Source: a bacterium (lineage in GTDB: Bacteria > Patescibacteriota > Minisyncoccia > Minisyncoccales > CG1-02-41-26). Taken from it: a DNA stretch of 64,000 bases. Within the stretch, counting starts at the first letter, position 1. Each line of letters starts with the position of its first letter. The position numbers and the translations under genes were made by a program. Positions 642 through 28,231 of the stretch are shown here, piece after piece. Location of the stretch: contig JAUSHZ010000007.1 of the NCBI GenBank assembly GCA_030648255.1, positions 24,404 to 88,403 of the forward strand. The letters run 5' to 3'. The notes below the pieces were generated by a model. The model made no database searches. It saw only the letters and a program-made list of their open reading frames with translations, and was not told the DNA's origin.

Positions 642-1277
642 TTAGCGAGAATAGAACTCAAAAATAGATGAAATATCAATATTATTAACGTCTTCTGCTG
701 TGGGCTCGGCCATAATTTTACCTTCCATTTTTTCTTTATCTAAATCCAGCCATTTTGGCTGTTGATAATTTTTTAAGGCAGAAGAAAGATTCTTAAAAAT
801 CACTTTTCCTTTTTTATTCTCCTTAAAAGAAATGGCTAATCCTTTTTTAGTAGCAAAAGATGATATATTAACTGGTTTTCCATTTACTAAAAAATAACCA
901 TGAGAAACCATCTGCTTTGCCTCTCTCCTTGATTTAGCAAAACCTAATCTAAAAACAACATTGTCTAGCCGTCTTTCCAATTCTTTTAACAAAAACAGGG
1001 TAGCATCGCCTCCTTGCCCTCTTTTTTTCAAAACAAATTTAACATGGTTTCTAAACTGGCGCTCTCCCAAACCATAGTAGTTTCTTAATTTTTGTTTTTC
1101 TTTTAATTGTTTCGCAAACTCCGAAAAAGAGCCGCTTCTTCTTTTCTTTTTAGGGCCTGGGGCATATGGCCTTCTAATAAAAGGGCAGGTGGGGGAAAAG
1201 CATTTCTCCCCCTTTAAAAAAGTTTTTTGGCCTAATCGCCTGCAAACCTTGCAATTTGTGATAGTTTTTTTCTGCAT
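642..1277 (-). CDS. rpsD: 30S ribosomal protein S4
   Basis: 211 aa with a CKVCRR Zn-ribbon-like N-terminus and an S4 domain. Sits next to rpoA as in the alpha operon. Confidence 0.9.
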   Translation of the reverse strand: MQKKTITNCKVCRRLGQKTFLKGEKCFSPTCPFIRRPYAPGPKKKRRSGSFSEFAKQLKEKQKLRNYYGLGERQFRNHVKFVLKKRGQGGDATLFLLKELERRLDNVVFRLGFAKSRREAKQMVSHGYFLVNGKPVNISSFATKKGLAISFKENKKGKVIFKNLSSALKNYQQPKWLDLDKEKMEGKIMAEPTAEDVNNIDISSIFEFYSR

Positions 1278-1489
1278 GTTAGAAGCTGTGTGAATTTTTA
1301 AATTTAATGATTTAAAAATTCATTACAGATTCTTACACCCCGTTAAGTGCGAGCGATGAGCGAGCTACTTAACTGGGGTTTGTTTGTATTCTTATCCACC
1401 CCAGTGAAGTAAAATTTGAGTACAAATTCACTTCACGGGGTTAAGCGATTGTATTTGTTCAGCCTCGGCTTCGGCTTCGCAAACAATCG
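1278..1489 (-). repeat. Intergenic modular repeat copy 1 (head A, middle I, tail 1)
   Basis: Starts right after the rpsD ATG (cat 1275-1277) and ends at the rpsK stop. The tail hairpin agcgattgt...acaatcgCTA supplies the TAG stop of rpsK. Confidence 0.9.
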
Positions 1490-1981
1490 CTAAACCCTTC
1501 TTGGTTTTCTTGGCCGACAGCCATTATGAGGAATTGGCGTTACGTCTCTTATTGATTCTATCTCCAAGCCTTGAGCGGCAATAGTTTTTAAAGCTGAATC
1601 TCTTCCGCCTCCAACCCCCTTAACAAAAACAGCAACTTCTTTAATTTTAAATTGTTCGCAAGCTAAAGCTACCGCTTGGGCAACTTTAGAGGCGGCAAAA
1701 GAAGTGCCTTTCTTTGTGCCCTTAAACCCAACATTTCCAGCAGACCTCCAAAATAAGACATTTCCTTTTTCATCAGCCAAGCTGACAATAGTATTGTTAT
1801 AGGTTGAAGAAATATAAATTCTGCCCTTTCTAAAAGAAGTTCTGGTAGAAGCAACATTCAAATCTTTTCCTAATTTCTTTTCAACTTTATCTGTTTCTTC
1901 AATAAGCTCTTTTTCTGTTTTTTGTATTACTCTTTTCTTTCCCATGTTAGTATTCGTTAATGAATGAAGTGGCTTTGCCAC
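1490..1981 (-). CDS. rpsK: 30S ribosomal protein S11 (N-terminal extension)
   Basis: 163 aa. The C-terminal half matches S11 (ISSTYNNTIVSLADEKGNVLFWRSAGNVGFKGTKKGT...). Confidence 0.9.
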   Translation of the reverse strand: MAKPLHSLTNTNMGKKRVIQKTEKELIEETDKVEKKLGKDLNVASTRTSFRKGRIYISSTYNNTIVSLADEKGNVLFWRSAGNVGFKGTKKGTSFAASKVAQAVALACEQFKIKEVAVFVKGVGGGRDSALKTIAAQGLEIESIRDVTPIPHNGCRPRKPRRV

Positions 1982-2136
1982 GAATGAATTTACGAAGACT
2001 TACACCCTGTGGAGTAGAAATTTGCTCTGCAAATTTCTGTTTTAAATTTTTAGTAAAAAATTTAAAACTACTCCACGGGGTAAATTCGTCGTAAGCTCTG
2101 GCTTCGCCTGCTGGCTTTCCCTCGCTAACGGCTCAT
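1982..2136 (-). repeat. Intergenic modular repeat copy 2 (head C, middle II, tail 2)
   Basis: Has the catgttagtattcgttaatgaatga... head and the ccctgtggagtag...ctactccacgggg middle. The tail ...cgctaacggctcaTTTA abuts the rpsM stop. Confidence 0.9.
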
Positions 2137-2526
2137 TTACTTTGGCCCTGGGGCTGTTTTTCTTCCAGAACTTACAGTTCTCTTAACATTGCCCCTTACA
2201 GTTCTTGAATTCTTTTTTGTTTTTTGCCCTCTAACAGTCAAGCCCTTTATGTGCCTGGTTCCTCGCCAACACTTAATCTCTTTTAATCTTTTAATATGGG
2301 CCACGTGCTCTCTTCTTAAGTCTCCTTCAATCTTATAACTTGCATCAATAACCTCTTTTATCTTCATTGCTTCTTGCTCGGTTAAATCTTTAGCTTTTTT
2401 CTGTGGCTCTATGTTGCATTGCTTTAAAATTCTTAAAGCCAATGGCCTGCCAATGCCAAAAACATAAGTCAAAGAAATGGCTATTTGTTTATTATCTGGA
2501 ATTGTGATGCTTGCTATTCGTGGCAT
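2137..2526 (-). CDS. rpsM: 30S ribosomal protein S13
   Basis: True start is MPRIASITIPD (cat 2524-2526). The ORF track extends 8 codons into the repeat via a TTG start (MKIHTASNM...). Confidence 0.9.
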   Translation of the reverse strand: MPRIASITIPDNKQIAISLTYVFGIGRPLALRILKQCNIEPQKKAKDLTEQEAMKIKEVIDASYKIEGDLRREHVAHIKRLKEIKCWRGTRHIKGLTVRGQKTKKNSRTVRGNVKRTVSSGRKTAPGPK

Positions 2527-2751
2527 GTTAGAAGCTGTGTGAATTTTCAAATTTAATGATTTGAAAATTCATTACAGATTCTTACACCCCGTTAAGTGCG
2601 AGCGATTAGCAAGCTACTTAACTGGGGTTTGTTTATATTTCTATCCACACCCCAGTGAAGTAGAATTTAATTTCATTAAATTCACTTCACGGGGTAAATT
2701 CCGCCAACCGCTCAAACTTCGGCTCATCGCCTCGTTTTCGCGGGGCGTCAT
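2527..2751 (-). repeat. Intergenic modular repeat copy 3 (head A, middle I variant, tail 3)
   Basis: Lies between the rpsM ATG and the rpmJ stop. The tail is ...ctcaaacttcggctcatcgcctcgttttcgcggggcgtcattta. Confidence 0.9.
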
Positions 2752-2868
2752 TTATGCGCCTTGGCGCTGTTTGTGTTTTGGAGTTTTGCAAATAACATAA
2801 ACCCTCCCCTTTCTTCTGGCGATTTTACAATCCTTACATAATTTTTTTACTGATGGTTTAACCTTCAT
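2752..2868 (-). CDS. rpmJ: 50S ribosomal protein L36 (missed by the 60-aa ORF cutoff)
   Basis: Reverse complement reads ATG AAG GTT AAA CCA TCA... and translates [38 protein letters not shown]. This is a classic L36 with C-x2-C...C-x4-H, 38 aa, in the expected infA-rpmJ-rpsM position. Confidence 0.9.
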
Positions 2869-3085
2869 GTTAGAAGCTGTGTGAATTTTTAAATTTAATG
2901 ATTTGAAAATTCATTACAGATTCTTACACCCCGTTAAGTGCGAGCGATTAGCAAGCTACTTAACTGGGGTTTGTTTGTATTTCTATCCACACCCCAGTGA
3001 AGTAGAATTTGAGTACAAATTCACTTCACGGGGTAAATTCCGCTTGCCAATCGCGCTTCGCCTGCTGGCTCGCACTCTTGGAGCG
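2869..3085 (-). repeat. Intergenic modular repeat copy 4 (head A, middle I, tail 4)
   Basis: Near-identical to copy 3 across the head and middle. The tail ...gcttcgcctgctggctcgcactcttggagcgTCAttta uses tca as the TGA stop of infA. Confidence 0.9.
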
Positions 3086-3304
3086 TCATTTAAGTCTATA
3101 AACTATTCTGCCTCTTTTATCATCAATAGAGGCCATTTCAACCAACACCTTATCGCCCAACAAAATTTTTATGCGATTAATTCTAAGCTTCCCGGCCAAA
3201 TGCGCCAAAACCTCGTTTCCATTTTCCAATTGAATTTTAAATAAAAGACTAGGCAAAGCCTCTACAACTTGGCCTCTTTCTCTTATTGTATTAATTTGTT
3301 TCAT
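3086..3304 (-). CDS. infA: Translation initiation factor IF-1
   Basis: 72 aa with S1-like IF-1 sequence (LENGNEVLAHLAGKLR...GDKVLVE...RGRIVYRLK). Confidence 0.9.
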   Translation of the reverse strand: MKQINTIRERGQVVEALPSLLFKIQLENGNEVLAHLAGKLRINRIKILLGDKVLVEMASIDDKRGRIVYRLK

Positions 3305-3358
3305 CTCGTTACGATTGTCTAAAATAGCAAATTATTCAAAAAAGGTCAACCCCTTTGG

Positions 3359-4738
3359 CTAGAAAACCATTTCTATCTTTATCTTATCTAGGCTTTTTGG
3401 CGCTCTTTTTATCCAAAAAGGCCAAAATTGCGTGTCCAGTCGTTCAATTTGGGGGTAGCTATTATTCAATAAAATCTCCATATCTTCTTTAGATTTTCCA
3501 GCTAAATCCGCAATTAAGGCTGTTTGGTCAATATCATTATAAAGCTTGGCATCTGTTTTTAAATTAAAAATCAAACTCCCTTTTTCCGTAATGCTGCCTT
3601 TTGGAACTACGCTTGTCGCTAAGCTTTGTTCGTATAATTTCTTTGAAGAAGATAGTTTTGTATCAATAAAGCTTTTGGCCATATCCTGCAAATCTGATCC
3701 CTTAAAAACAATTGTCTTAGCTTTTATTTTTGCATAACAATTAAATTCAGCGAGGTTGGCGCCAACAGCTTGAGAACAAGAGAACTCGGGCTCGCCATAG
3801 TCAACTGATTCTTGGTTAAAAGAAAATCCAGCGGTTGTTTGCTCCTTCAAGCCCGAAACAGCCATTTTTTTTAACTCCCTAATCAAGCTTTCTTGAGCAT
3901 TATCCATATCTCCTTGAGTTACTTGATCAACTTCTTTCTGACCCCCGCCGTCAATTTTTTCTCTTGATTCACCCCAAACATTATAGTATAAAGCTGTTCC
4001 TGTTAATCCTGGAATAGAAAACTTAGCAGGGGCTATATTATATTCCTCTCCCTCCTGATCAGCGACAACCTGAACCTCTGTAATGCTTGGGGTTAATTTT
4101 CCATTAAACAATGTGGCTTGGGGCAAAGAAATCTTATTTTTTGCCCGATAAACCTTTCCATCTTTTGATGATATAAATCTTGTTCCTGCTTTTAAGTTTA
4201 AGGGCATTGGGGGATTAATATTATTGTAAACAAATATAGCGCCCGTTGCCCCAGATTGTTCTGTTTCTTTTCCAGTTGACTTAAATGTTTCCCATTTCTC
4301 TACTTCTTTTTCAATTACATTTCCGGGAATAATCTTTTTTTCAAAATCGATTTGCGCTTGAGAAAAAGAAACTTGAATCTCGTCTTTAATTGTAATTGGC
4401 TCTAATAGCGGTTTCACGCTTATTTCTGCTTTTGCCTGCATCGTTAAATATAAAAAGGCTCCCCCTAAAAGCAAAATGGCTACACCAATAACTATGGGAA
4501 TTTTTAGAGCAAGTCTTGGTAAAGTAAAAGAAACTCGAATTTCTTTTTTTCCCTTGCCACGTCGGAGTTCCGCAGGAACGGAGGCGGGTCTTTCTTTTTT
4601 CACCTCCCCCTTCTTCATCCCCTTTCTTGTAGGTGATTTTTTTTGAGGCTTAGTTGAAGCTAAAACAATTGGAAATTGTTCCTCTGTTTCTTCTGCTTCT
4701 TCCTCATCTGGATTTGTTATATCAATAATTTGCTTCAT
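3359..4738 (-). CDS. Hypothetical membrane-anchored protein: acidic then basic N-terminus, one TM helix, ~380-aa extracytoplasmic domain
   Basis: 459-aa ORF. The TM segment is IPIVIGVAILLLGGAFLYL. No recognisable family. It sits inside the r-protein operon. Confidence 0.5.
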   Translation of the reverse strand: MKQIIDITNPDEEEAEETEEQFPIVLASTKPQKKSPTRKGMKKGEVKKERPASVPAELRRGKGKKEIRVSFTLPRLALKIPIVIGVAILLLGGAFLYLTMQAKAEISVKPLLEPITIKDEIQVSFSQAQIDFEKKIIPGNVIEKEVEKWETFKSTGKETEQSGATGAIFVYNNINPPMPLNLKAGTRFISSKDGKVYRAKNKISLPQATLFNGKLTPSITEVQVVADQEGEEYNIAPAKFSIPGLTGTALYYNVWGESREKIDGGGQKEVDQVTQGDMDNAQESLIRELKKMAVSGLKEQTTAGFSFNQESVDYGEPEFSCSQAVGANLAEFNCYAKIKAKTIVFKGSDLQDMAKSFIDTKLSSSKKLYEQSLATSVVPKGSITEKGSLIFNLKTDAKLYNDIDQTALIADLAGKSKEDMEILLNNSYPQIERLDTQFWPFWIKRAPKSLDKIKIEMVF

Positions 4739-4866
4739 GTTAGAAATTCTTAATTGAGTGGCGAATTTATGAGCCGTGAAATTTAGAAGTTTTTAGTCCT
4801 CCGTAAATTCAAACTTCGCCTACTGACTCGTTTTCATTAACGGATTACTTATTCTACCACAAAAAT
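4739..4866 (-). repeat. Intergenic modular repeat copy 5 (short: head B + tail only)
   Basis: Sequence catgttagaaattcttaattgagtggcgaatttatgagccgtgaaatttagaag...cgttttcattaacggattacttatt. It lacks the middle module and sits between alaS and the membrane-protein gene. Confidence 0.8.
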
Positions 4867-6615: not shown

Positions 6616-6621
6616 ATATTT

Positions 6622-7377: not shown

Positions 7378-7381
7378 AGAT

Positions 7382-8368
7382 TTAAATCTTTATCTTTCTT
7401 AAATATTCAGCGGCTTTTTCTGGAGGCATTGTTATTATTTCAATGCCACTTCCCAGCTCAAAGCCAGCCCACACAGAAATGCGGGGCATAATAGTGAAAT
7501 GCCAATGGAAAAAAGAGTACTCTTTGTCATCGCACGGGCTTGTGTGTAAATAAAAATTATAATCTGGAAACTCCAAACCATAACCAATCTTTTTTAAAAC
7601 CTCGCCAAAAATTTGGGCTAAATCGCTTTTTTCTTCTTTGGTTATTTTTTCAAAATAAGGCAAGTGGTTTTTTGGAGATATAACAACTTCAAAATTCACT
7701 TTTGAAGCAAAAGGACAAATGGCTAAAAAATTGCTGTTTTCAAAAACAATTCTTGTTTGAACTGATTTTTCCGCCCTATTTGTAGCGCAAAAAAGGCACT
7801 GGCTTTTTTCTTTAAAAAACTCGCGAGAGGAATTTAAAGAGATAGACAAGTCTTTATCAAAAAATGGAATAGCAATAATTTGAGAATGCGGGTGAATTAA
7901 AGAAGCCCCGGCCATCTTGCCATGATTGTGGAAAATAGAAACATAGTTAACAATTTTTTCTTTTGATAGTTCAGTGTATCTTTGCTGGTAAATGCCAAGC
8001 AATTCTTCCCAATCTATTTGAGAAAAATCAGTTAATTGCTTTGAGTGGTCATTAAAAACCACAACTTCATGAAAGCCATTTGAAGGCAATCTTTGGAACA
8101 AAGCGTTGTCAGTTTTTAGTAAATTATTTTTCTGTGGAAAAAATGCGGGAAACTTATTGGGTATTACTACAAAATTTTTATCCCTGAATTTTTCCTGCGC
8201 AAAATAATCACAAAAAGCGCAAGGCATGTTGTCTATCGCCTCGTCTGTTTTTTTCTTTTTAAAATCCTCTGGTCTCTTACCCCTCCCCTCTGCCACCACC
8301 ACCCAATCCTTGTTAATAATGTCGTATCTCAACTCGGATTTTGATTTTACTACTTTTTTGAAAAACAT
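7382..8368 (-). CDS. Galactose-1-phosphate uridylyltransferase-like (GalT/HIT superfamily) nucleotidyltransferase
   Basis: Carries a CAFCDY Zn site and the H-P-H-S-Q active-site motif (LIHPHSQIIAIP), over 328 aa. Confidence 0.7.
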   Translation of the reverse strand: MFFKKVVKSKSELRYDIINKDWVVVAEGRGKRPEDFKKKKTDEAIDNMPCAFCDYFAQEKFRDKNFVVIPNKFPAFFPQKNNLLKTDNALFQRLPSNGFHEVVVFNDHSKQLTDFSQIDWEELLGIYQQRYTELSKEKIVNYVSIFHNHGKMAGASLIHPHSQIIAIPFFDKDLSISLNSSREFFKEKSQCLFCATNRAEKSVQTRIVFENSNFLAICPFASKVNFEVVISPKNHLPYFEKITKEEKSDLAQIFGEVLKKIGYGLEFPDYNFYLHTSPCDDKEYSFFHWHFTIMPRISVWAGFELGSGIEIITMPPEKAAEYLRKIKI

Positions 8369-8438
8369 ATTTACTTATTATAGCAAAATCTTTAAATAAA
8401 CAAAAAGGCAGGGTTAAATTCCCCCGCCAAATCATAGA

Positions 8439-8573
8439 TCAAAAGTCCTGATTTGCTCTTGATTCCATAATTTCTTTGGATCTATCAATCATGCGAATCC
8501 TCTCCAGATATTTTTTAAGTAAACGCTCACGACATGTCTCTCTTTTTTTTAAAGTTCTTCTTCTTTTGTTCAT
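8439..8573 (-). CDS. Small basic protein (44 aa) with strong Shine-Dalgarno
   Basis: Sequence MNKRRRTLKKRETCRERLLKKYLERIRMIDRSKEIMESRANQDF. An AAGGAGG lies 7 nt upstream of the ATG, which is one of the few strong SDs in the window. Confidence 0.5.
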   Translation of the reverse strand: MNKRRRTLKKRETCRERLLKKYLERIRMIDRSKEIMESRANQDF

Positions 8574-8584
8574 TTGAAACCTCC

Positions 8585-10001: not shown

Positions 10002-10024
10002 ATTATTTAATGATAACAGAATTT

Positions 10025-10524: not shown

Positions 10525-10679
10525 TTTTTAACTCCTCTTAGATAATTTACCTAAAGCCAGTTTAAAGTATTCACGACAACACAAATATTACTACTTAACC
10601 ACAAAAAATCAAGCCATGCTGTCAAAACCCGATTTTGGGCTCCCTAAAAATCGGATTTCAAGGGATCCTTGATTGAAAT

Positions 10680-10712
10680 AAACAAAAAACGCCTTTCGGC
10701 GAGATATATATT
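10680..10712 (-). terminator. Intrinsic terminator downstream of secY
   Basis: On the minus strand, ctcgccgaaaggcg followed by ttttttgtttattt. Confidence 0.5.
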
Positions 10713-10937
10713 CTTTTTTCTCTTCACCCCCCAACAAGAAAACTTGGAGAAATGCGAGCTTGTTTGTTTTTCTTTGCCTTACGAAGAGAGATTAGAAAAT
10801 TTAGGAGCGAAACGAGGGAAAATAGTGGTAGGTCGCCGAAGGCGATCGGGCACCACGTAATTTTTCCGAAGTTTCGCGACTAAAATTTTCAAGCTCTTGA
10901 AGTTCAGCAAAGAAAAATAAATAAGCGAAGTCAGCTT

Positions 10938-12221: not shown

Positions 12222-12409
12222 GTTAGTAATTCTTAATTGAACGGCGAATTTATGAGCTGTGAAATTTAGAATTTCTTACACCCCGTGGAGTAGAAATTTG
12301 CTCTGCAAATTTCTATTTTAAATTTTTTACTAAAAATTTAAAATTACTCCACAGGGTAAATTCCGCTTGCCAATCGCGCTTCGATTACTCAGCACTCTTG
12401 GAGCGTCAT
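12222..12409 (-). repeat. Intergenic modular repeat copy 6 (head B, middle II, tail 4 variant)
   Basis: Sequence catgttagtaattcttaattgaacggcgaatttatgagctgtgaaatttagaa...ggagcgtcatTTA. The last tta is the rplO stop. Confidence 0.9.
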
Positions 12410-12841: not shown

Positions 12842-13040
12842 GTTAGTAATTCTTAATTGAACTGCGAACGATTAGTGAGCTGTGAAATTTAGAAGTACTT
12901 ACACCCTGTGGAGTAGAAATTTGCTCTGCAAATTTCTGTTTTAAATTTTTAGTAAAAAATTTAAAACTACTCCACGGGGTAAATTCCGCCTTCCACTCAA
13001 ACTTCGGCTAATCGCCTCGTTTTCGTGGGGCGTCATTTAA
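12842..13040 (-). repeat. Intergenic modular repeat copy 7 (head B, middle II, tail 3); tail overlaps rpsE 3' end
   Basis: The tail ...cttcggctaatcgcctcgttttcgtggggcgtcattta is homologous to the copy-3 tail. Here it is read in frame as the last 11 codons of S5 ([10 protein letters not shown]). Confidence 0.85.
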
Positions 13041-13526: not shown

Positions 13527-13720
13527 GTTAGTAATTCTTAATTGAACGGCGAACGATTAGTGAGCTGTGAAGTTTAGAAGTACTTACACCCTGTGGAGTA
13601 GAAATTTGCTCTGCAAATTTCTGTTTTAAATTTTTTACTAAAAATTTAAAACTACTCCACGGGGTAAATTCCGCTTGCCAATCGTGCCTCACCTGCTGGC
13701 TCGCACTCTTGGAGCGTCAT
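13527..13720 (-). repeat. Intergenic modular repeat copy 8 (head B, middle II, tail 4)
   Basis: Runs from the rpsE ATG to the rplR stop (gagcgtcatTTAaaattg). Confidence 0.9.
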
Positions 13721-14065: not shown

Positions 14066-14258
14066 GTTAGTAGTCGTTAATGAATGAGTGGCGATTAGCC
14101 ACGAGTGAATTTACGAATTCTTACACCCTGTGGAGTAGAAATTTGCTCTGCAAATTTCTGTTTCAAATTTTTAGCAAAAAATTTGAAACTACACCACGGG
14201 GTAAGTCCTCCGTAAGCTCTGGCTTCGGCTAATCGCCTTGCCATCGCTAACGGATTAC
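14066..14258 (-). repeat. Intergenic modular repeat copy 9 (head C, middle II, tail 2)
   Basis: Sequence catgttagtagtcgttaatgaatgagtggcgattagccacgagtgaatttacgaa...cgctaacggattacTTA. Confidence 0.9.
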
Positions 14259-14819: not shown

Positions 14820-15021
14820 GTTAGAAATTGTGTGAGTTTTCAAGCTATAATCTTTTTTATGGCTTGAAAACTCATTACAAGTTCTTACACCCTGTGGAGT
14901 AGAAATTTGCTCCGCAAATTTCTGTTTTAAATTTTTTACTAAAAATTTAAAACTACTCCACGGGGTAAGGTATCCGTAAGCTCGGGCTTCGCCTGCTGGC
15001 TCGCCCTCGCTAACGGCTACC
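14820..15021 (-). repeat. Intergenic modular repeat copy 10 (head D, middle II, tail 2)
   Basis: Sequence catgttagaaattgtgtgagttttcaagctataatcttttttatggcttgaaaactcattacaag...cgctaacggctaccTTA. Confidence 0.9.
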
Positions 15022-15411: not shown

Positions 15412-15612
15412 ATTAGAAGTTGTGTGAGTTTTCAAGCTATAATTTTTTTTATGGCTTGAAAACTCATTACAAATTCTTATACCCCGTGGAGTAGAAATTT
15501 GCTCTGCAAATTTCTGTTTTAAATTTTTTACTAAAAATTTAAAACTACTCCACAGGGTAAGTCCTCCGTAAGCTCTGGCTCGGCTGTTGCCTCGCCATAG
15601 CTAACGGATTAC
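15412..15612 (-). repeat. Intergenic modular repeat copy 11 (head D, middle II, tail 2)
   Basis: Very close to copy 10. Ends ...agctaacggattacTTA at the rpsN stop. Confidence 0.9.
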
Positions 15613-15798: not shown

Positions 15799-16020
15799 GT
15801 TAGTGATTCTTAATTGAACGGCGAGCGATTAGCGAGCTGTGAAATTTAGAATGACTTACACCCCGTTAAGTGCGAGCGATTAGCGAGCTACTTAACTGGG
15901 GTTTCGTTGTATTCTTACCCCACCCCAGTGAAGTAGAATTTGAGTACAAATTCACTTCACGGGGTAAGGCTCTGCTACCGCTCAACCTTCGCCTTCGGCT
16001 CGGCTTCACGGGCAGAAGCC
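15799..16020 (-). repeat. Intergenic modular repeat copy 12 (head B, middle I, tail 3-like); tail overlaps rplE 3' end
   Basis: The tail ccgctcaaccttcgccttcggctcggcttcacgggcagaagcc is homologous to the tail-3 family. It encodes the L5 C-terminal residues ...ASAREAEPKAKVER*. Confidence 0.8.
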
Positions 16021-16634
16021 TTAAATGGAAACCCCAGCAATCTTAATAATGCAGCGCCTTCTTCCTTTGTTTTGGCTGTTGTTGAAATTGTTACTTCTAA
16101 TCCAAAAATGCCTTTCTCTTTTTCAACTTTCAATTCAGGAAATGGAACATACTCTTTAAATCCAACTGTAATATCTCCTTGGCTTGTCATAGATTTCTCT
16201 TCAACGCCCCTAAAGTCTCTAGACCTTGGCAAAACAACCCAAATCAACTTCTCTAAAAAATCATACATTCTTTTCTTTCTTAAGGTGCAGCTGGCTCCAA
16301 CCGCCATACCTTCTCTTAGCTTGAAAGCAGCAATTGATTTTTTTGCTTTATTTAGAGATGGTTTTTGCCCGGTAATAGCGGCTATTGATTGAGCAATATA
16401 TTCTTCCGCTTTTTCTCTCTCACTGGCGCTTTTTCCAATAACCATTTTGCCAAAACCGCAATTAACAACAATCTTCTTTATTTTTGGCACAGCCATAACA
16501 GAACTATACCCGAATTTCTTCGTCATTTCAGGAATAACTATTTTATTGTATTGCTCTTGTAATTTCATATTTTTCATGAAGCTGTCGAAGCTGTTGAAAC
16601 CGAGCTTCTGGAAGCCCTTGAAGCTCGGTTTCAA
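15975..16634 (-). CDS. rplE: 50S ribosomal protein L5 (with N- and C-terminal extensions)
   Basis: 219 aa. The core is NYSSVMAVPKIKKIVVNCGFG. Confidence 0.85.
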   Translation of the reverse strand: MKPSFKGFQKLGFNSFDSFMKNMKLQEQYNKIVIPEMTKKFGYSSVMAVPKIKKIVVNCGFGKMVIGKSASEREKAEEYIAQSIAAITGQKPSLNKAKKSIAAFKLREGMAVGASCTLRKKRMYDFLEKLIWVVLPRSRDFRGVEEKSMTSQGDITVGFKEYVPFPELKVEKEKGIFGLEVTISTTAKTKEEGAALLRLLGFPFKASAREAEPKAKVER

Positions 16635-16655
16635 CAGCTTCAGGCTCCATAGCTT

Positions 16656-16961: not shown

Positions 16962-17177
16962 GTTAGAAATTGTGTGAGTTTTCAAGCTATAATCTTTTTT
17001 ATGGCTTGAAAACTCATTACAAGTTCTTACACCCTGTTAAGTGCGAGCGATGAGCGAGCTACTTAACTGGGGTTTGTTTATATTATTCTCATACCCCAGT
17101 GAAGTAGAATTTGATTACAAATTCACTTCACGGGGTTAAGCGATTGTAATGCTCGGCTATCGCCTCGCAGACAATCG
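16962..17177 (-). repeat. Intergenic modular repeat copy 13 (head D, middle I, tail 1)
   Basis: The tail hairpin agcgattgt...acaatcgCTA supplies the TAG stop of rplN. This matches copy 1 and its use at rpsK. Confidence 0.9.
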
Positions 17178-18375: not shown

Positions 18376-18566
18376 GTTAGAAGCTGTGTGAATTTTCAAA
18401 TTTAATGATTTGAAAATTCATTACAGATTCTTACACCCCGTGGAGTAGAAATTTGCTCTGCAAATTTCTGTTTTAAATTTTTAGTAAAAAATTTAAAACT
18501 ACTCCACAGGGTAAATTCCGCTTGCCAATCACGCTCGCCTGCTGGCTCGCGCTCTTGGAGCGTCAT
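18376..18566 (-). repeat. Intergenic modular repeat copy 14 (head A, middle II, tail 4)
   Basis: Runs from the rplP ATG to the rpsC stop (ggagcgtcatTTAattaaag). It carries a 3-nt deletion relative to copies 4 and 8 in the tail. Confidence 0.9.
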
Positions 18567-19576: not shown

Positions 19577-19776
19577 GTTAGAAATTGTGTGAGTTTTCAA
19601 GCTATATTTCCTTATGGCTTGAAAACTCATTACAAGTTCTTACACCCCGTGGAGTAGAAATTTGCTCCGCAAATTTCTGTTTTAAATTTTTAGTAAAAAA
19701 TTTAAAACTACTCCACAGGGTAAATTCCGCTTGCCAATCGCGCTTCGCCTGCTGGCTCGCGCTCTTGGAGCGTCAT
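19577..19776 (-). repeat. Intergenic modular repeat copy 15 (head D, middle II, tail 4)
   Basis: Ends ...gctcttggagcgtcatTTA at the rpsS stop. Confidence 0.9.
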
Positions 19777-20103: not shown

Positions 20104-20107
20104 AAAA

Positions 20108-20902: not shown

Positions 20903-20904
20903 AA

Positions 20905-21348: not shown

Positions 21349-21349
21349 A

Positions 21350-21988: not shown

Positions 21989-22014
21989 GTTGGCTATTTT
22001 CTATCCACTGCTTA

Positions 22015-22641
22015 CTATTTACTCTTTTTCTTATTTACTATTGAACTTGTAATCTCTACAAGCGTTCCTCGCCTGCCAGGGATGGCGCCTTTTACTGCAA
22101 TCAAATTATTTTCCAAATCAATTTTAACAATTTTTAAATTTCTCACCGAAATTCGCACAAATCCCATATGGCCTGGCATTCTCTTGCCCGGGAAAACTCT
22201 ACCCGGGTCAGTAGCACCAACCGAACCAATTGTTCTTACTTCATGCTTTGTGCCATGGGTTGTGTGATGCCCCCTAAAATTATATCTCTTAACACCTCCT
22301 TGAAACCCTTTGCCCTTGCTAATACCTGAAATTTTAACTTTATCTCCTTCTTGAAAAACAGAGGCATTAATCTCCTGCCCTAATTCATAATTCTTAATTC
22401 CTGATTCCTGAGGCCTGAACTCTTTTAAATATCTATACTCTTTGCCTTTCTCGGTTTTCTTAATTTTTCTAGCTTTTTTTTCAAAACCAATCTGAACCGA
22501 TTCATAGCCATCTTTGCTTTCCTTGGTCTTATTTTGTAAAACAACACAAGGCCCAGCTGTAATCAAAGTTACTGGGACTGCATCTCCCTTTTCATTAAAT
22601 ATTTGAGTCATCTCTAATTTTTTTCCAAGAATAAATGACAT
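22015..22641 (-). CDS. rplC: 50S ribosomal protein L3
   Basis: 208 aa with GKGFQGGVKRYNF. Confidence 0.9.
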   Translation of the reverse strand: MSFILGKKLEMTQIFNEKGDAVPVTLITAGPCVVLQNKTKESKDGYESVQIGFEKKARKIKKTEKGKEYRYLKEFRPQESGIKNYELGQEINASVFQEGDKVKISGISKGKGFQGGVKRYNFRGHHTTHGTKHEVRTIGSVGATDPGRVFPGKRMPGHMGFVRISVRNLKIVKIDLENNLIAVKGAIPGRRGTLVEITSSIVNKKKSK

Positions 22642-22941
22642 GTTAGAAGCTGTGTGAATTTTTAAATTTAATGATTTAAAAATTCATTACAGATTCTTAC
22701 ACCCTGTGAAGTAAAATTTGAGTACAAATTTTAATTTTAAATTTTTTACTAAAAATTTAAAATTACTTCACGGGGTTAATAATCCGTAAGCTCAAGCTTC
22801 GCCTGCTGGCTCGCTCTCGCTAACGAATTATTAAAAACACGAGGCATTAACTCCCCGCATTTTTGTTAAAAACTCAAGGGTTAAATTCTTCCCACTTTCA
22901 AGGGTTAAACTAATTAAGTTTTACCTTGAACTCTATATTAA
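22642..22941 (-). repeat. Intergenic modular repeat copy 16 (head A, chimeric middle, tail 2 + ~110-bp unique extension)
   Basis: The middle is a hybrid: ccctgtgaagtaaaatttgagtacaaatt (the M-I loop) fused to ...ttttttactaaaaatttaaaattacttcacgggg (the M-II 3' half). The tail is followed by caagggttaaa(t/c)t direct repeats before the rpsJ stop. Confidence 0.8.
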
Positions 22942-23280
22942 TTAAATCGTTTTAATTTCAATTTCCACGCCCGCTGGCAAGGTTAAATCACGAAGCGACT
23001 CAATAAATCTTTGGTTTGGATTTGTTACTTCTATCAATCGCTTGTGCACTCTCATTTCAAATTGCTCTCTAGCATCTTTGTGAACAAATGTTGACCTGTT
23101 TACTGTGTATTTTTTTATTTCTGTTGGCAAAGGCACAGGCCCAACCATTTCCACGCCCGACCTGCCCGAAATTTCTGTAATCTGATGGCACGAAGCGTCA
23201 ACCACCTTGCTATCATATGATTTTAGCTTAATTCTTAGCTGAACCGCCTGCTCCACTGGTTTTTCTTTTACTGTTGCCAT
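22942..23280 (-). CDS. rpsJ: 30S ribosomal protein S10
   Basis: 112 aa. The S10 fold motif is RIKLKSYD...VHKRLIEV. Confidence 0.9.
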   Translation of the reverse strand: MATVKEKPVEQAVQLRIKLKSYDSKVVDASCHQITEISGRSGVEMVGPVPLPTEIKKYTVNRSTFVHKDAREQFEMRVHKRLIEVTNPNQRFIESLRDLTLPAGVEIEIKTI

Positions 23281-24479
23281 TATTTTATTATCTTTGAAAC
23301 CACCCCAGCGCCAACTGTTCGCCCGCCCTCTCTAATAGCAAATTTCTGTTTCTCTTCTAAGGCAATTGGGGTAATCAATTTAACTGTCACACTGATCGTA
23401 TCTCCCGGCATAACCATTTCAACTCCCGCTGGCAAAATAACATCTCCTGTTACATCGCAAGTTCTAATAAAGAACTGTGGCTTGTATCCAGAGAAAAACG
23501 GAGTGTGCCTTCCGCCTTCATCTTTAGTTAAGGCGTAAATTTCTGCTTCAAATTCAGAATGAGGAGTCACAGAGCCTGGCTTAGCAAGCACTTGCCCCCT
23601 TTCAATATCTTCCTTTTTAAACCCTCTCAACAAAATACCCACGTTATCGCCAGCTCTGCCTTCATCAAGAATTTTGTTAAACATTTCCACGCTTGTGGCA
23701 ATAGTTTTTTGAGTGGCTCTTAAGCCAACAATTTCCACCTCCTCTCCGCCCTTCACAATACCTCTTTCTACTCTGCCAGTAGCCACTGTGCCTCTGCCTT
23801 CAATAGAAAAAACATCTTCCACAGCCATTAAAAATGGCTTGTCAGTAGCTCTTACGGGTTCGGGAAAGAAAGAATCAATCTTTTCAAATAATTCAGCAAT
23901 TGGCTTCATATCCTCATCATCCGCTGATTCGGCCGCCACTGCTTTTAATGCTGAGCCTCTAATAATTGGGGTTGTGTCTCCCGGGAAATCGTATTTCTTT
24001 AACAACTCTCGCAATTCTGATTCCACTAATTCAATCATTTCTGGGTCATCCACCTGATCGCATTTATTTAAAAAGATAAGCAAATTTGGCAAACCCACTT
24101 GATTGGCAAGCAAAACGTGCTCTCTGGTTTGAGGCATAGGGCCTTCGGCCGCAGACACAACCAAAATACCTCCGTCCATTTGAGCGGCGCCAGTAATCAT
24201 ATTTTTGATATAATCAGCGTGGCCCGGGCAGTCAATCAAAGCGTAGTGCCTGTTAGCTGTTTCAAATTCGTTGTGTGAAATGTTAATCGTTACGCCTCTG
24301 GCTTTTTCTTCTGGAGCTGAATCAATTTCATCAATTGATTTATTTGAAGATTTAAAACCTTTTAAGTGGGCGTACTTCAACATAGCTGCTGTTAAAGTAG
24401 TTTTGCCGTGGTCAACATGGCCAATAGTGCCAATATTTAAGTGCGGCTTAGTTCTTTCGAATTTTTGTTTCTCTGCCAT
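23280..24479 (-). CDS. tuf: Elongation factor Tu
   Basis: 399 aa with [15 protein letters not shown] and NKCD motifs. Confidence 0.95.
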
Positions 24480-24535
24480 AGATTTAAATTATTTTATTAT
24501 GTTTATTATATTGATTAAAAAAATAAAGTCAATGC

Positions 24536-24805
24536 TTAAAACGGTAAATCATCTAAAGTTAGATCAGCTGTGGGCTTTTCTGACGCTGAAATTTTTTCTA
24601 ATTGCGATTCTGGTTTTGCTTCTAACTCTATTTCTTCAACTGTAATGGGCGTTTTTGATTCTAATAAAGCCGAAGTTAAATCTAAATTTTTTCTTTTTGT
24701 TTTTTCGTACTCGTTAAAAGACATAACCACCATAATATCGTCATTGTCAATTATGAGAACCTTTCCCTCTTCAGAAACAATTTGTTTTATTTTAAATAAA
24801 TCCAT
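24536..24805 (-). CDS. Phd/YefM-like antitoxin-fold small acidic protein (orphan) between fusA and tuf
   Basis: N-terminus VLIIDNDDIMVVMSFNEYEKT resembles the YefM/Phd N-terminal fold (cf. ...CVLMSLEEYNSL). No toxin gene is adjacent. Confidence 0.4.
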   Translation of the reverse strand: MDLFKIKQIVSEEGKVLIIDNDDIMVVMSFNEYEKTKRKNLDLTSALLESKTPITVEEIELEAKPESQLEKISASEKPTADLTLDDLPF

Positions 24806-24898
24806 AATCTTAGAAACCAGAATTCCGAAACCAGAATTCCGAACTTTAATAACTAGAAATTTTTCGGATTTCGGATTTCGTGCTTCGGATTTTTATTG
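24806..24898. repeat. Tandem/inverted short repeats (accagaattccgaa x2; ttcggattt x3) in fusA-downstream spacer
   Basis: Direct repeats are visible in sequence. The two repeat sets are partly complementary to each other, which would form an imperfect hairpin. Confidence 0.6.
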
Positions 24899-27001
24899 TT
24901 ATATTCTTTTTCCTTCCACTATTTCTTGCGCTATGTTACTTGGCACTCTTTCATAATGATCAAATTCCATTGTAAAAGCTCCTCTGCCTTGAGTCAATGA
25001 CCTAAGCGAAGTGGCATAGCCAAACATTTCTGACAAAGGCACCTTGCCTTTAATTATTTTTTGGCCAACTCTGTCATCTGTTTCTTCAATCAATCCCCTT
25101 CTTCTATTTAAATCGCCAATTACATCGCCAAAAAATTCTTCTGGGCAAGCTGCTTCAAGTTTCATGATTGGTTCCAAGACAATTGGAGTAGCTTTTTTAC
25201 AAGCTGCCTGAAACGCCATAGACGAGGCAATTTTAAAAGCGATTTCTGACGAATCAACGTCATGATAAGAGCCATCATACAAAGTTATTTCAATATCCAC
25301 CACTGGATACCCCGCCACAACGCCCTTGTTAGTAGCTTCTTTAACTCCTTTCTGAACGCCTGGAATAAACTCTTGAGGAATAGCCCCTCCTTTAATAGCA
25401 TTGATAAATTCATAGCCAAGCCCTCTTTCTTTTGGCTTAACTCTCAAATACACATGGCCATATTGACCTCGCCCGCCTGACTGCTTAATATATTTTCCTT
25501 CAGCTTCGGCCTGGGCCATAATTGTTTCTTTGTAGGCCACTTGGGGCTTGCCAGTATTGGCCTCAACGCCAAATTCTCTTTTCATTCTTTCAACTAAAAT
25601 ATCTAAATGCAATTCTCCCATACCCGACATAATTGTCTCCCCAGTTTCCAAATCCTCTTTAATCCTAAAAGTTGGGTCTTCATCAGATAACTTCTTTAAG
25701 GCAATAATAAGCTTTTCTTGGTCTGCCTTTGTTTTTGGCTCAATTCTAATAGAAATAACTGGCTCTGGGAATACTGGCTTTTCTAAAATAATTTGATTAG
25801 CTTCATCACATAAAGTGTGACCTGTGCCAGTTCTTCGCAAGCCCACGGTGGCTGCAATATCTCCGGCCATAATCTCATCAATATCTTTTCTGGAATTTGC
25901 ATGCATTTGCAAAATTCGGCCAATTCTTTCTTTTTCACCAGTAATTGGATTTAATAAATAAGAACCTTTTGTTAAAGTTCCAGAATAAACCCTAAAATAA
26001 GCCAAACTGCCCACAAATGGGTCGGTGGCAATTTTAAAAACTAAAGCTGAAAATGGCTCTGTGTCATCTGCTTTTCTGGTAATTTCTTTTTCAGTTTTTG
26101 GGTCAAGGCCCTTAACTGGTGGCAAGTCGGCTGGGCTTGGCAAATAATAGCAAACAGCGTCAAGCATTAGTTGAACGCCTTTATTTTTTAAAGCTGAACC
26201 CGCCATCACTGGAATAAGCTTATAAGCTAAAACTGATTTTCGTAAAGATGCCCTCACTTCGTCCACTGAAATTTCTTTACCTTCCACAAACCTGTCTAAT
26301 AAATCTTCGTCTTCTGAAGCAATTTTTTCCATCATATTATGCCTCCATTCTTTGGCTTTTTCTTTTAGGTTTTCCGGGATTTCATTTTCAATAACTTTTT
26401 CTCCTTTTTCTCCCTCAAATGTATAATATTTTTGCGTAATTAAGTCCACAATGCCTTTAAATCTTTCCTCGTGGTCATCGGGAAATTGAATAGCCACAGA
26501 CGACTTGGTAAGTTTTTGTTCAATAGAAGCCAAGCATTTATCAAAACTTGCTCCCATTCTGTCCAGTTTATTAACAAAACAAATTCGGGGCACTTTATAA
26601 TTGTCGGCCTGTCTCCAAACAGTTTCAGATTGAGCTTCCACTCCAGCTACTCCATCAAACACAACCACAGCCCCATCTAAAACCCGCAAAGATCTTTGCA
26701 CCTCGGCTGTAAAATCAATGTGGCCGGGAGTATCAATTAAATTAAATCTAAATAAATTGTCTTTTTCTTTTTCCATTCCAGTGGGCGTCCAATAACAAGT
26801 GGTAGCAGCTGATGTAATAGTAATGCCCCTTTCTCTTTCTTGTTCCATCCAATCCATTACTGCCTCGCCTTCGTGCACTTCGCCAATTTTATGGGAAATG
26901 CCGGTATAAAACAAAACCCGCTCCGAAACGGTTGTTTTTCCTGCGTCAATATGAGCAATAATGCCAATATCCCTTGTTTTTTCTATAGAAAATTCTCGCA
27001 T
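24899..27001 (-). CDS. fusA: Elongation factor G
   Basis: 700 aa with AHIDAGKTT and DTPGH. Confidence 0.95.
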   Translation of the reverse strand: MREFSIEKTRDIGIIAHIDAGKTTVSERVLFYTGISHKIGEVHEGEAVMDWMEQERERGITITSAATTCYWTPTGMEKEKDNLFRFNLIDTPGHIDFTAEVQRSLRVLDGAVVVFDGVAGVEAQSETVWRQADNYKVPRICFVNKLDRMGASFDKCLASIEQKLTKSSVAIQFPDDHEERFKGIVDLITQKYYTFEGEKGEKVIENEIPENLKEKAKEWRHNMMEKIASEDEDLLDRFVEGKEISVDEVRASLRKSVLAYKLIPVMAGSALKNKGVQLMLDAVCYYLPSPADLPPVKGLDPKTEKEITRKADDTEPFSALVFKIATDPFVGSLAYFRVYSGTLTKGSYLLNPITGEKERIGRILQMHANSRKDIDEIMAGDIAATVGLRRTGTGHTLCDEANQIILEKPVFPEPVISIRIEPKTKADQEKLIIALKKLSDEDPTFRIKEDLETGETIMSGMGELHLDILVERMKREFGVEANTGKPQVAYKETIMAQAEAEGKYIKQSGGRGQYGHVYLRVKPKERGLGYEFINAIKGGAIPQEFIPGVQKGVKEATNKGVVAGYPVVDIEITLYDGSYHDVDSSEIAFKIASSMAFQAACKKATPIVLEPIMKLEAACPEEFFGDVIGDLNRRRGLIEETDDRVGQKIIKGKVPLSEMFGYATSLRSLTQGRGAFTMEFDHYERVPSNIAQEIVEGKRI

Positions 27002-27088
27002 AAGTTAATCGGTTTAGTCATTCTGAGCCAACGGGCGAAGAATCTCGGCCGAGACCCTTCGCTAATCACTTAGGGTGACAACAATATT

Positions 27089-27550
27089 TTATCGGGCTAG
27101 ATAAGCAAAAGCTTTGTTGGCTTCGGCCATTTTATGGACATTGATTTTCTTTTTCACTGCCTCGCCCTCCCCCTTGCTTGCCTGCATAATTTCTTCAGCT
27201 AATCTGCTGGCCATATCTTTGCCTTTTTTCTTTTGGGCAGATGAAATAAGCCATCTCATGGCCAAGCTCAAAGCCCGTTTGTCTTTAACCTCTCTGGGCA
27301 CCTGATAAGTAGCTCCCCCAACACGCTGTGGCCTCACTTCAACTTTTGGAGCAGCTTCTTCTAAAGCTTTTTCAAAAATATCCATTGGCTCTTGTTTGGT
27401 TTGCTCTTTGACAATATCAAAAGCGCTATAAACAATTTTTTGGGCAATGCTTTTTTTGCCTTGAGTCATTACAGTGTTTATAAATTTTGCAACAATAACG
27501 CTGTCATAAGATGAATCAGGCAATATTTCTCTTGTTTTAAATTTAGCCAT
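27089..27550 (-). CDS. rpsG: 30S ribosomal protein S7
   Basis: 153-aa S7 family protein. Confidence 0.9.
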   Translation of the reverse strand: MAKFKTREILPDSSYDSVIVAKFINTVMTQGKKSIAQKIVYSAFDIVKEQTKQEPMDIFEKALEEAAPKVEVRPQRVGGATYQVPREVKDKRALSLAMRWLISSAQKKKGKDMASRLAEEIMQASKGEGEAVKKKINVHKMAEANKAFAYLAR

Positions 27551-27814
27551 GTTAGTAATCGTTAATGAATGAGTGGCGATTAGCCACGAGTGAATTTACG
27601 AGGACTTACACCCTGTGAAGTAAGATTTGAGGTCTCTTCCAAAAAGTGTATTCTCTTAAACTTTTAACTATTTTTCTCTCGCATCAATTGTTAATAATCG
27701 TACCCTCAAATCTTAATTTTAAATTTTTTACTAAAAATTTAAAATTACTTCACGGGGTAAATTCCGCCAACCGCTCAAACTTCGGCTCATCGCCTCGTTT
27801 TTGCTGGGCGTCAT
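27551..27814 (-). repeat. Intergenic modular repeat copy 17 (head C, middle with ~75-bp nested insertion, tail 3)
   Basis: The apical loop of the middle hairpin is replaced by the stem-loop gatttgaggtctc...gtaccctcaaatc. The tail ...ctcgtttttgctgggcgtcatTTA supplies the TAA stop of rpsL. Confidence 0.85.
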
Positions 27815-28231
27815 TTAACTTTTAACTCTTTTTGCTCCGTATTTAGATCTTCCATTTTTTCTGCCAGCCACCCCTGTGGTATCTAAATGTCCTCTAACAA
27901 TATGATATCTCACGCCGGGTAAATCTTTAACCCTTCCCCCTCTCACCAAAACCATTGAGTGCTCTTGTAGGTTGTGGCCTTCCCCGCCAATATAAGCAGA
28001 AACTTCTTTGCCATTTGATAGCTTAACCCTGGCTACTTTTCGTAAAGCCGAGTTTGGTTTTTTTGGAGTAACTGTGAAAACCTTAGTGCAAATTCCTCTC
28101 TTAAATGGAGACGCGTAGTCCTGTGGCCTGTTTTTTAAAACATTAAAACCATAAGTCAAAGCTCTCATCTTGATTGTTTTTTTCACTGGCTTTCTTGGCT
28201 TTTTAATTAATTGATGAATTGTTGGACACAT
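27815..28231 (-). CDS. rpsL: 30S ribosomal protein S12
   Basis: 138 aa with [11 protein letters not shown], a classic S12. Confidence 0.95.

Follow-up and report, generated by a model that had tools for sequence, protein, structure and literature searches.

A mosaic, hairpin-rich repeat that abuts start codons in a CPR/Paceibacteria clade, possibly a recently active mobile element

The BOX elements of Streptococcus pneumoniae (boxA-boxB-boxC) and the BIMEs of enterobacteria, which are mosaic clusters of REP sequences, are short, non-coding intergenic repeats built of modular hairpins with no internal transposase, and their copy number and module composition vary by site and strain. ERIC/IRU sequences of enterobacteria and Correia/NEMIS elements of Neisseria resemble miniature inverted-repeat transposable elements of 100 to 160 nt and often lie within transcription units, where they are co-transcribed as RNA hairpins and processed by RNase E or RNase III, altering the stability of the flanking mRNA. 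MIRUs of Mycobacterium tuberculosis are intercistronic operon repeats in one orientation. A common leader before each cistron is also provided by the RNase III hairpins of phage T7 early genes, by chloroplast intercistronic sites and by the trypanosome spliced leader, and such leaders can define mRNA ends and expose the initiation region. Here we analyse a 64,000-nucleotide stretch of contig JAUSHZ010000007.1 (assembly GCA_030648255.1, positions 24,404 to 88,403; Patescibacteriota), referred to in its full length as the window, in which 17 junctions, nearly all between ribosomal protein (r-protein) genes, are occupied by copies of a structured repeat, hereafter the element. It is a previously undescribed repeat family of a clade of the candidate phyla radiation (CPR)/Paceibacteria; literature searches by topic and by sequence strings returned no description of it.

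The likeness to mosaic repeats of the BOX, RUP and Correia type, which an earlier note on this DNA had drawn, is supported. The element shares with BOX and BIMEs its interchangeable hairpin modules, its variation by site and strain and the lack of a transposase inside. No sequence relation was found, however, and BOX and BIMEs are neither polarised relative to genes nor end at start codons, whereas here 88 of 89 testable heads (the 3'-terminal module) abut ATG in the sense orientation and three separate domains covary. ERIC and Correia sequences have clear terminal inverted repeats (TIRs), a TA duplication and both orientations; the element, in contrast, has absolute polarity, a 3' end flush with AUG and TIR-like ends in one module combination only. 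MIRUs are made of 40-100-nt tandem units whose small open reading frames (ORFs) extend over the stop and start codons on either side, whereas the element contains no conserved ORF. The T7, chloroplast and spliced-leader systems are functional analogues only; the element is dispensable, polymorphic and encoded in cis at each site. With the PATEs of IS200/IS605 and with REP/RAYT the element has in common subterminal imperfect hairpins at both ends, mostly without a TIR and without a clear target-site duplication, a short conserved flank on one side, strand polarity and, at the head end, pairing of terminal bases with bases 5' of the hairpin foot (PMC3201880); it differs from both in its large variable middle module, in the loss of native spacer on both sides and in its adjacency to start codons, which is not known for them. 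REP and BIME have themselves been linked to RAYT (PMC3333891).

Junction extraction across the str, S10, spc and alpha operons returned an insert of 166 to 300 nt at all 17 junctions that the earlier note had named, each on the minus (transcribed) strand. Sixteen copies are complete and one is without the middle module, and all lie between positions 1278 and 27814. The core ACTYMACRGGGTRTAAG occurs 16 times in the window against 0.04 expected occurrences, and profile hidden Markov models of the three domains matched 17 tails, 16 middles and 17 heads below 28.3 kb, every one on the minus strand. The same tail, middle and head models gave no significant match from 28 to 64 kb, which confirms that the remaining 36 kb of the window is free of copies. 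Filled junctions number 17 of 37, compared with 0 of 39 in the copy-free part (Fisher p=4e-7). Genes lie on the minus strand from 1 to 52 kb, and the copy-free 36 kb encodes accessory and metabolic functions, namely restriction-modification, a Cu-ATPase, Dsb proteins, a hydrogenase and an ABC exporter. Not all junctions that lack a copy are as short as the 0-26 nt first reported for them: rplX/rplE measures 78 nt, rpsG/fusA 87, fusA/tuf 419 and the junction of a 459-aa gene with infA 54.

Read along the transcribed strand, the element consists of a tail, the linker (G)AAUUUA, a middle, the linker UGUA and a head; its sense strand can fold into three independent, irregular hairpin domains (tail, middle and head). 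Its 5' border is UAA followed by RURA (AUGA, GUAA, AUAA or GUGA), and its 3' border is AAC-AUG. The tail is a single long irregular hairpin, in the order P1, P1b, GA-GA, P2, GA-GAA, P3 and a 4-5-nt loop. The middle comes either as M-II, in which CCCY-GUGRAGU...ACUYCAC-R-GGG encloses two AT-rich hairpins, or as M-I, which is two bulged hairpins, and the head is a hairpin with a variable apex. The module census of the window gives four head types (5, 4, 5 and 3 copies), 5 M-I and 11 M-II middles, and four to five tail types; the four heads and two middles previously recognised therefore stand, with four to five tails in place of four. The head terminus, earlier given as UUCUAAC-AUG, is more accurately YU(U/A)CUAAC-AUG, that is UUCUAAC or UACUAAC and, once, ...UAAU. 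A further module type, a CCCGATTAAACGC...GCGTTTAACAGGATC hairpin, interrupts or replaces parts of copies in other loci (L012 at ~7700-7800, L050 rpsE/rplO over 140 nt, and L008 at 4523-4653), so that module diversity exceeds that of the window.

Compensatory substitution is borne out in the tail and in the head base. Across 53 distinct copies, 95% of the cells in tail helices P1b, P2 and P3 are paired, and double (compensatory) changes number 133 as opposed to 35 ± 7.5 in shuffles; controls with slid partners were 20-34% paired. P2 takes the forms AAGC/GCUU, AAAC/GUUU, UGGC/GCCA, GGGC/GCCC, GCGC/GCGC and others, and P3 the forms GCC/GGC, GGC/GCC and GCU/AGC. The GA/GAA loop of the tail is retained in 31 of 39 parsed copies; reading it as a K-turn was rejected because covariation backs the P2 register. 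At the head base, 96% of cells are paired, with 58 double changes versus 18, and the helix joins AG(A/U)A of the link to the 'spacer' U(U/A)CU (AU in 28, UA in 14). Nucleotides -2 and -1 pair, with covariation, with U6 and G5 of the link, 5' of the head hairpin foot. As G5 and nucleotide -1 covary (GC 37, AU 5, GU 2), the helix stack extends to the base preceding AUG, and U4 could pair with the A of AUG itself, both positions being invariant. The middle stem covaries as well (GUGAAGU/ACUUCAC 29, GUGGAGU/ACUCCAC 16, GUUAAGU/ACUUAAC 5). At the fourth position of this stem, 34 of 55 copies have C.A, 10 have U.G, 8 have U-A and 3 have C-G; the C.A is a conserved helix defect, in whose place M-I has one-base bulges.

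A representative copy (copy 15, 19577-19776) folds at -92 kcal/mol (z=-11.5). There is some strand signal, with 23 G.U versus 8 A.C in the tail (p = 0.011) and 4 versus 2 in the head. Over the whole element, minimum free energies of -71.9 kcal/mol for the sense and -73.2 kcal/mol for the antisense strand indicate that both fold equally well, and the C.A mismatch of the middle would be a U.G pair on the antisense strand. The description as a modular, hairpin-rich family of fixed orientation is upheld.

To follow the element beyond the window, a degenerate pattern was scanned over species-representative genomes and a relaxed pattern over metagenomes. All 18 pattern matches in the species representatives are genuine copies and come from four metagenome-assembled genomes: Candidatus Paceibacterota STD1_120 (JAQULB01), Gribaldobacteria PFAV01, CAYVXQ01 and JAZDKU01. 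Those of JAQULB01 lie on four contigs and on both DNA strands. The metagenomes yielded 41 matching stretches, nearly all with genuine copies, and viral contigs gave no match to the element. The ~486 kb analysed hold 90 distinct heads, of which 89 are testable. Genes downstream of copies encode, by Pfam, RRF, NusA, S18, rubrerythrin, response regulators, a histidine kinase, a debranching enzyme, VirB4/TraG and a DUF5667 secreted protein and, by N-terminal sequence, RpoC, NusG, S16, L10, SSB, DnaJ, a type IV pilin, a PBP and an H+-PPase. Several copies are preceded by a terminator and then a TATAAT box (TATAAT-AA-RTRA-P1), and these constitute the complete 5' untranslated region (UTR); to judge by the spacing on inspection, their transcripts would begin where the tail helix has its foot. 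The range of downstream genes and the 5'-UTR copies therefore mark the element as a general start-codon-linked leader of the clade and not as a device of r-protein operons. Exclusivity to essential r-protein operons, as the earlier note had it, is true only within the 64-kb window.

Relatives for syntenic comparison were found through homologues of L6, identities being mean protein identities to the window. Against the 17 copies of the window, there are none at 30 junctions of L061 (87.6%), none at 7 junctions of L063 (85.9%), 2 copies in L058 (85.5%), none at 28 junctions of L062 (84.9%), at least 13 in JAQULB01 (84.1%), 4 in L050 (82.2%) and 1 plus 2 partial copies in L040 (62%). L064, for which L6 is the sole protein in common with the window (89% identical by tblastn and 90% by BLASTP), is without copies at both junctions covered. 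At 82-88% protein identity, the same syntenic operons accordingly hold between 0 and 17 copies. JAQULB01 is filled at rplW/rplB, rplB/rpsS, rplP/rpmC and rpsQ/rplN, where the window has junctions of 1-4 nt, and the converse is also found. Tails and heads can differ at one junction between genomes, as at rplW/rplB, which carries T2/H3 in JAQULB01 and T3/H2 in L050. Nested inserts occur in the middle (~70 nt, GAGGGUAC...GACCUC) and in the tail loop (a ~25-nt hairpin), inner hairpins are exchanged or inverted, and there are internal deletions, for example in copy 5 of the window and at rplR/rpsE of L040. The comparison of sister genomes thus reveals both presence/absence polymorphism and module shuffling, which points to mobility and with it to the alternative that the earlier note had offered, a selfish element with extreme target specificity. 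As relatives at 85-88% protein identity have the same operons with zero copies, the element is not a required punctuation device of these operons.

Between the window and JAQULB01, orthologous copies agree at 80% of positions (85-88% for matching modules), compared with 51% at fourfold-degenerate sites and 61% at third codon positions of the flanking genes. Conservation is equal at paired (86%) and unpaired (85%) positions, and together these values fit copies younger than the split of the hosts. Paralogues of one genome are closer to each other than orthologues are between genomes, and genome-specific variants are shared. Together with the occupancy data, the pattern is that of a young, expanding and homogenising repeat family, possibly moving between lineages, and not of an ancient operon component.

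Other insertions are present in the same operons. L040 (Ga0066637_10001736) at rplC/rplD, rplB/rpsS, rpsH/rplF, rplF/rplR and rpsE/rplO, and L050 at rplD/rplW and rpsC/rplP, are filled by unrelated AT-rich long inverted repeats that are built from short tandem units. The filler at rplC/rplD of L040 resembles, by eye, a HicA/HicB-type toxin-antitoxin pair. Operon junctions in the clade are generally invaded.

An ATG with an ORF in the same orientation follows within ~12 nt in 88 of the 89 testable distinct heads, immediately in ~85% and at a distance of 2-10 nt in the remainder (CTAAC-AC-ATG, -AT-ATG and others). At the other end, TAA precedes RTRA in ~90% of copies, including TAA that is out of frame and TAA within TATAATAA of a promoter, and the TAA near the 3' end is invariant (45 of 45). 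The upstream ORF runs into the tail in three cases (rpsE, rplE and, in JAQULB01, rpsQ). Where native spacers are long, as at rpsJ/rplC, at alaS/459-aa gene and behind promoters, the element lies against the ATG and not the stop codon, which makes ATG adjacency the primary rule. A TIR-like match is seen in ~12 copies (T2'/H4), in which the 5' end GTAATCCGTTAATGAA agrees with the reverse complement of the H4 3' end at 13-14 of 15-16 nt (p<=0.01).

Pieces of 11-25 nt that are identical to the head 3' end remain in 'empty' junctions of relatives: ATTAAGAATTACTAAA at rpsH/rplF of L058, L061 and L062, GAATTACTAAA at rpsE/rplO of L061, AAAATTAACGATTACTAA(TTAT) at rplB/rpsS of L050 and ...TTCATTAACGATTTCTAAT at rpsM/rpsK of L019. 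The part preserved is the AUG-proximal end, with the partial copy at rplR/rpsE of L040 also retaining the tail; this suggests that the last 11-25 nt may serve as the initiation region of the downstream gene. In L058, L062, L063 and L050, the rplF/rplR and rplR/rpsE junctions hold element-free spacers of reiterated (A/C)TAATAAC-like units. Such spacers often end in ...TAAC or ...TAAA before ATG, as the element does at its 3' end, and may be remnants or a clade-wide motif of initiation regions.

Tetramers resembling the Shine-Dalgarno (SD) sequence are found upstream of 3 of 77 window genes against a background of 7%, and a TATAAT-like box stands 5-9 nt before the ATG of 12 of the 77, the geometry of leaderless mRNAs, which suggests that these may be widespread. 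A published survey reports a Parcubacteria subgroup without the anti-SD motif (PMC9297842); this and the SD-motif count point to probable anti-SD loss in the lineage. Internal cistrons presumably depend on tight stop-start coupling, a dependence that makes a structured insert of 200 nt remarkable and would strongly filter which insertions survive. Terminator-like signals of a hairpin plus T-run occur inside the elements on the plus (antisense) strand only, with no terminator on the sense strand, and selection against such signals could readily account for the absolute polarity.

We hold, with moderate confidence, that the element is a non-autonomous, mosaic, hairpin-rich mobile repeat that was recently active, is co-transcribed and survives only in translation-compatible form. 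Its copies are necessarily co-transcribed, either as intercistronic spacer or as whole 5' leader. In the mechanism we propose, initiation would involve no SD pairing and would rely on tight stop-start junctions or leaderless starts. Tolerated insertions would then be those that keep a stop codon at the 5' edge, that lie in the orientation free of terminator-like hairpin/U-tract signals, and that leave the AUG behind the element's own 3'-terminal leader (...AAUUACUAAC or ...GAUUUCUAAC), at the foot of a weak helix. There would also be an insertion preference for the site directly 5' of ATG. Between them, the tolerance filter and the preference would produce the dense, orientation-fixed and start-codon-flush pattern. 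On this reading the element is a translation-compatible 'stealth' spacer cassette for which the r-protein operons have no need.

Several observations weigh against a mobile repeat. There is no sign of an autonomous parent, as no arrangement of tail, ORF or long insert, and head was found in 390 kb of loci, and no transposase was found in the loci examined (8-20 kb each). The native spacers of empty sites, 1-40 nt long, are absent on both sides of filled sites, and no standard insertion mechanism accounts for this two-sided loss. Simple duplication of a TAA target site is hard to reconcile with C(-1), which is conserved, covaries with an internal base and so belongs structurally to the element. 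Copies at different junctions have identical ends, for which reason duplication of the whole junction (TAA-N-ATG) was rejected, and the spacer missing from both sides speaks against insertion 3' of a short target. No TIR is seen for T1, T3 and T4 tails with H1, H2 and H3 heads, a group that comprises most window copies. Head types are mostly alike at orthologous junctions, which argues for some vertical persistence. The restriction of the window copies to translation-related operons could mean a benefit for highly expressed genes, and compensatory evolution with conservation far above neutral is also expected of a functional RNA.

A possible, though less probable, explanation is that of a host-functional cis-acting RNA leader, a portable expression module for highly expressed genes in a clade that lacks SD pairing. 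The tail hairpin would protect the 3' end of the upstream mRNA or the 5' end of a primary transcript; the transcript would be processed in the middle and head helices, for instance by RNase III as in phage T7 early mRNA; and the 3' strand of the head, together with the AUG at the helix foot, would allow (re-)initiation without SD and bring stop and start together. Such a role would agree with the strict sense orientation and the AUG adjacency, with tail and head covariation that reaches nucleotide -1, with the excess of tail G.U over A.C, which favours the sense strand, and with conservation of 80-88% versus 51% at neutral sites. The TATAAT box of promoter-proximal copies is placed, by inspection, for a start at the tail-helix foot, transcription and translation machinery is enriched among the downstream genes, the remnants hold the AUG-proximal leader, and SD is unused. 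RNase III, RNase J and PNPase have been kept by CPR bacteria (PMC12641178). In the closest relatives, however, these operons function with spacers of 1-40 nt in place of the element, so that any function would be dispensable and facultative. Equal conservation of unpaired and paired positions and homogenised paralogues are more typical of young repeats than of an old functional RNA, and modules that are unrelated and interchangeable argue against a specific ligand or protein pocket. The equal folding of the two strands and the C.A mismatch in 34 of 55 middle stems also count against this explanation.

An unlikely variant makes the element a portable SD-independent initiation or coupling module, the bacterial counterpart of an internal ribosome entry site or common leader. 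Here, in a CPR clade that had abandoned SD pairing, the three-hairpin fold would set the start codon at the foot of the helix stack, beside the upstream stop or the transcript 5' end, and ribosomes would land on the conserved 3' leader (...AAUUACUAAC-AUG).

Quite unlikely, in our estimate, is that the hairpins are DNA-level signals of a single-strand element (IS200/IS605 or REP/RAYT, HUH Y1), with the RNA structure incidental. Tail and head would then be the subterminal imperfect palindromes of the left and right ends, 'guide' bases 5' of the hairpin foot would recognise the terminal nucleotides as sites of cleavage, and the fixed polarity would arise from strand-specific insertion beside a short target in the lagging-strand template. 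Imperfect hairpins with conserved bulges and mismatches do stand at both ends, most module combinations are without TIRs, the 5' flanking TAA is conserved even out of frame or inside a promoter, and both strands fold equally well. The pairing of -2/-1 with U6/G5 matches the guide and cleavage-site logic of IS608 (PMC3201880), but it is equally well a simple extension of an RNA helix, and no such pairing is evident at the tail end. Precise excision of the 'peel and paste' kind (PMC5027513) would agree with the clean empty sites found in relatives. If insertion took place 3' of a target, native spacer should persist on one side, but both sides lack it. The 8-20-kb loci, which allowed no proper search, showed no Y1 transposase. 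Tail G.U exceeds A.C, start-codon-flush ends are not known for this element family, and remnants confined to the AUG-proximal end suggest selection at the level of RNA or translation. The mobile, host-functional and single-strand DNA explanations overlap, for instance in a domesticated or 'stealth' element.

It is very improbable that the element is a gene-specific regulatory leader (r-protein autoregulation by rRNA mimicry, riboswitch or thermosensor) that is repeated by chance. Its location in r-protein operons of the window would suit such a leader, as would the GA/GAA and GA/GA internal loops of the tail, which resemble protein-binding motifs. Its distribution already largely refutes this, as it stands before dozens of unrelated genes and is absent from the same operons in close relatives; its modules are interchangeable, and no Rfam family, r-protein leaders included, matches it. 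The Rfam search of the whole window at the gathering threshold returned only a tRNA and DUF3800-V, without a match to the element, and a permissive search of 12.2-19.8 kb gave only generic miRNA-hairpin matches far below threshold. Scarcely credible are an assembly artefact, punctuation of a tRNA-like kind or, as in MIRUs, small ORFs that code for protein or serve in coupling: a UAA does lie one nucleotide ahead of AUG and many tails start with AUG just past the upstream stop, but the UAA-terminated frame stays open over just 7-70 codons and shows neither a conserved start nor a conserved peptide, AUG-initiated tail frames are unconserved, stem substitutions are compensatory and not codon-like, ARAGORN found no tRNA-like structure in the element (only tRNA-Pro and tRNA-Ser elsewhere in the window), and the element is seen in independent NCBI, JGI, ENA and Logan assemblies. 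Two further candidates were set aside. An integron attC site would have the core sites RYYYAAC and GTTRRRY in that order downstream of each cassette ORF, but on inspection of the sense strand YYYAAC is at the 3' end and the 5' end has nothing like GTTRRRY, and the setting is a conserved r-protein operon and not cassettes; a resemblance to group II intron domain V was rejected by inspection and Rfam.

The individual copies of the window, all on the minus strand, differ in module composition. Copies 1 to 4 lie at rpsK/rpsD (1278-1489; T4, M-I, H1; 212 nt), rpsM/rpsK (1946-2136; T2, M-II, H4; 191 nt), rpmJ/rpsM (2527-2751; T3, M-I, H1; 225 nt) and infA/rpmJ (2869-3089; T1, M-I, H1), the infA stop codon of the last being the TGA within the element's 5' ATGA. 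Copy 5, between alaS and the 459-aa gene, which has a GlxA domain (4739-4866; T2, H3), is the one without a middle module and leaves ~15 nt of native spacer on its 5' side. In the next group are copy 6 at rplO/secY (12222-12409; T1, M-II, H3; 188 nt), copy 7 at rpsE/rplO (12842-13040; T3, M-II, H3), the first ~33 nt of whose tail encode the C-terminus of rpsE, copy 8 at rplR/rpsE (13527-13720; T1, M-II, H3; 194 nt), copy 9 at rplF/rplR (14066-14258; T2, M-II, H4; 193 nt) and copy 10 at rpsH/rplF (14820-15021; T2, M-II, H2; 202 nt). Copy 11 at rpsN/rpsH (15412-15612; T2, M-II, H2; 201 nt) has the terminus CUAAU-AUG, which is compensated by the link GGGUAUAAG, and copy 12 at rplE/rpsN (15799-16022; T5, M-I, H3) has its tail within the 3' end of the rplE ORF. 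Copies 13, 14 and 15 follow at rplN/rplX (16962-17177; T4, M-I, H2; 216 nt), rpsC/rplP (18376-18566; T1, M-II, H1; 191 nt) and rpsS/rplV (19577-19776; T1, M-II, H2; 200 nt). Copy 16 at rpsJ/rplC (22642-22834; T2, M-II with a GUGAAGU stem, H1) takes up the 3' two-thirds of a 300-nt spacer, against the ATG, and the native leader is kept 5' of it (22835-22941). Copy 17 at rpsL/rpsG (27551-27814; T3, M-II, H4; 264 nt) carries the ~70-nt nested insert in its middle, and this insert is also found in copies of JAQULB01 and L050. Only H2 heads (14822-14851, 16964-16993 and 19579-19608, plus strand) contain a good antisense sigma-70-like site, TAGAAA-18-TATAAT (10/12), that points back into the element and the upstream gene. 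Internal sigma-70 promoters are not enriched in the elements (32 versus 24.9 ± 4.5), and no consistent sense-strand site was found.

Some other features of the window deserve mention. The rplX/rplE junction (16578-16655, minus strand) holds a different, G+C-richer palindromic insert of 78 nt where four relatives have a 4-nt junction, and the Rfam search gave only generic miRNA-model hairpin matches far below threshold for it. Between fusA and tuf (24480-24898) lies an 89-aa ORF (24536-24805, minus strand) with no Pfam match, in the place of which L058 and L062 have a gene of 78-80 aa. On either side of the ORF stand inverted repeats, AAATCCGAAGCACGAAATCCGAAA... / ...TTTCGGAATTCTGG, that resemble other junction 'fillers' of L040. 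Downstream of secY, positions 10678-10937 are non-coding and conserved like coding DNA (~82% in JAQULB01, ~71% in L040); they contain a GGTGCCCGATCGCCTTCGGCGACCTACCAC hairpin, have no Rfam match and may be an undescribed RNA or 3' UTR element. The DUF3800-V RNA (Rfam RF02964, 41.9 bits; 48983-49080, plus strand) adjoins a DUF3800 gene (49116-49784, minus strand), an expected association. Four tandem 51-nt repeats (28739-28939) lie within an ORF of 316 aa (28367-29317, minus strand) that has a signal-peptide-like N-terminus and no Pfam match.

If the mobile-repeat interpretation holds, this would be the first described interspersed repeat family of CPR/Paceibacteria and among the most position-specific of bacterial repeats, start-codon-flush, of single polarity and present in up to half of the junctions in the most conserved operons. 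In practical terms, such repeats inflate and fragment the r-protein operons used for phylogeny and binning, and they are usable as strain markers. Should the element instead be an initiation module, its spread would rewire which genes are strongly expressed. The puzzle for the biology of these organisms is that, with SD-like sequences at 3 of 77 genes, they tolerate a stably folded stretch of ~200 nt between the stop and start codons of essential operons, and the natural filled and empty alleles make translation of the downstream cistron, be it by leaderless-like recognition of the helix foot, by processing or by re-initiation, directly testable.

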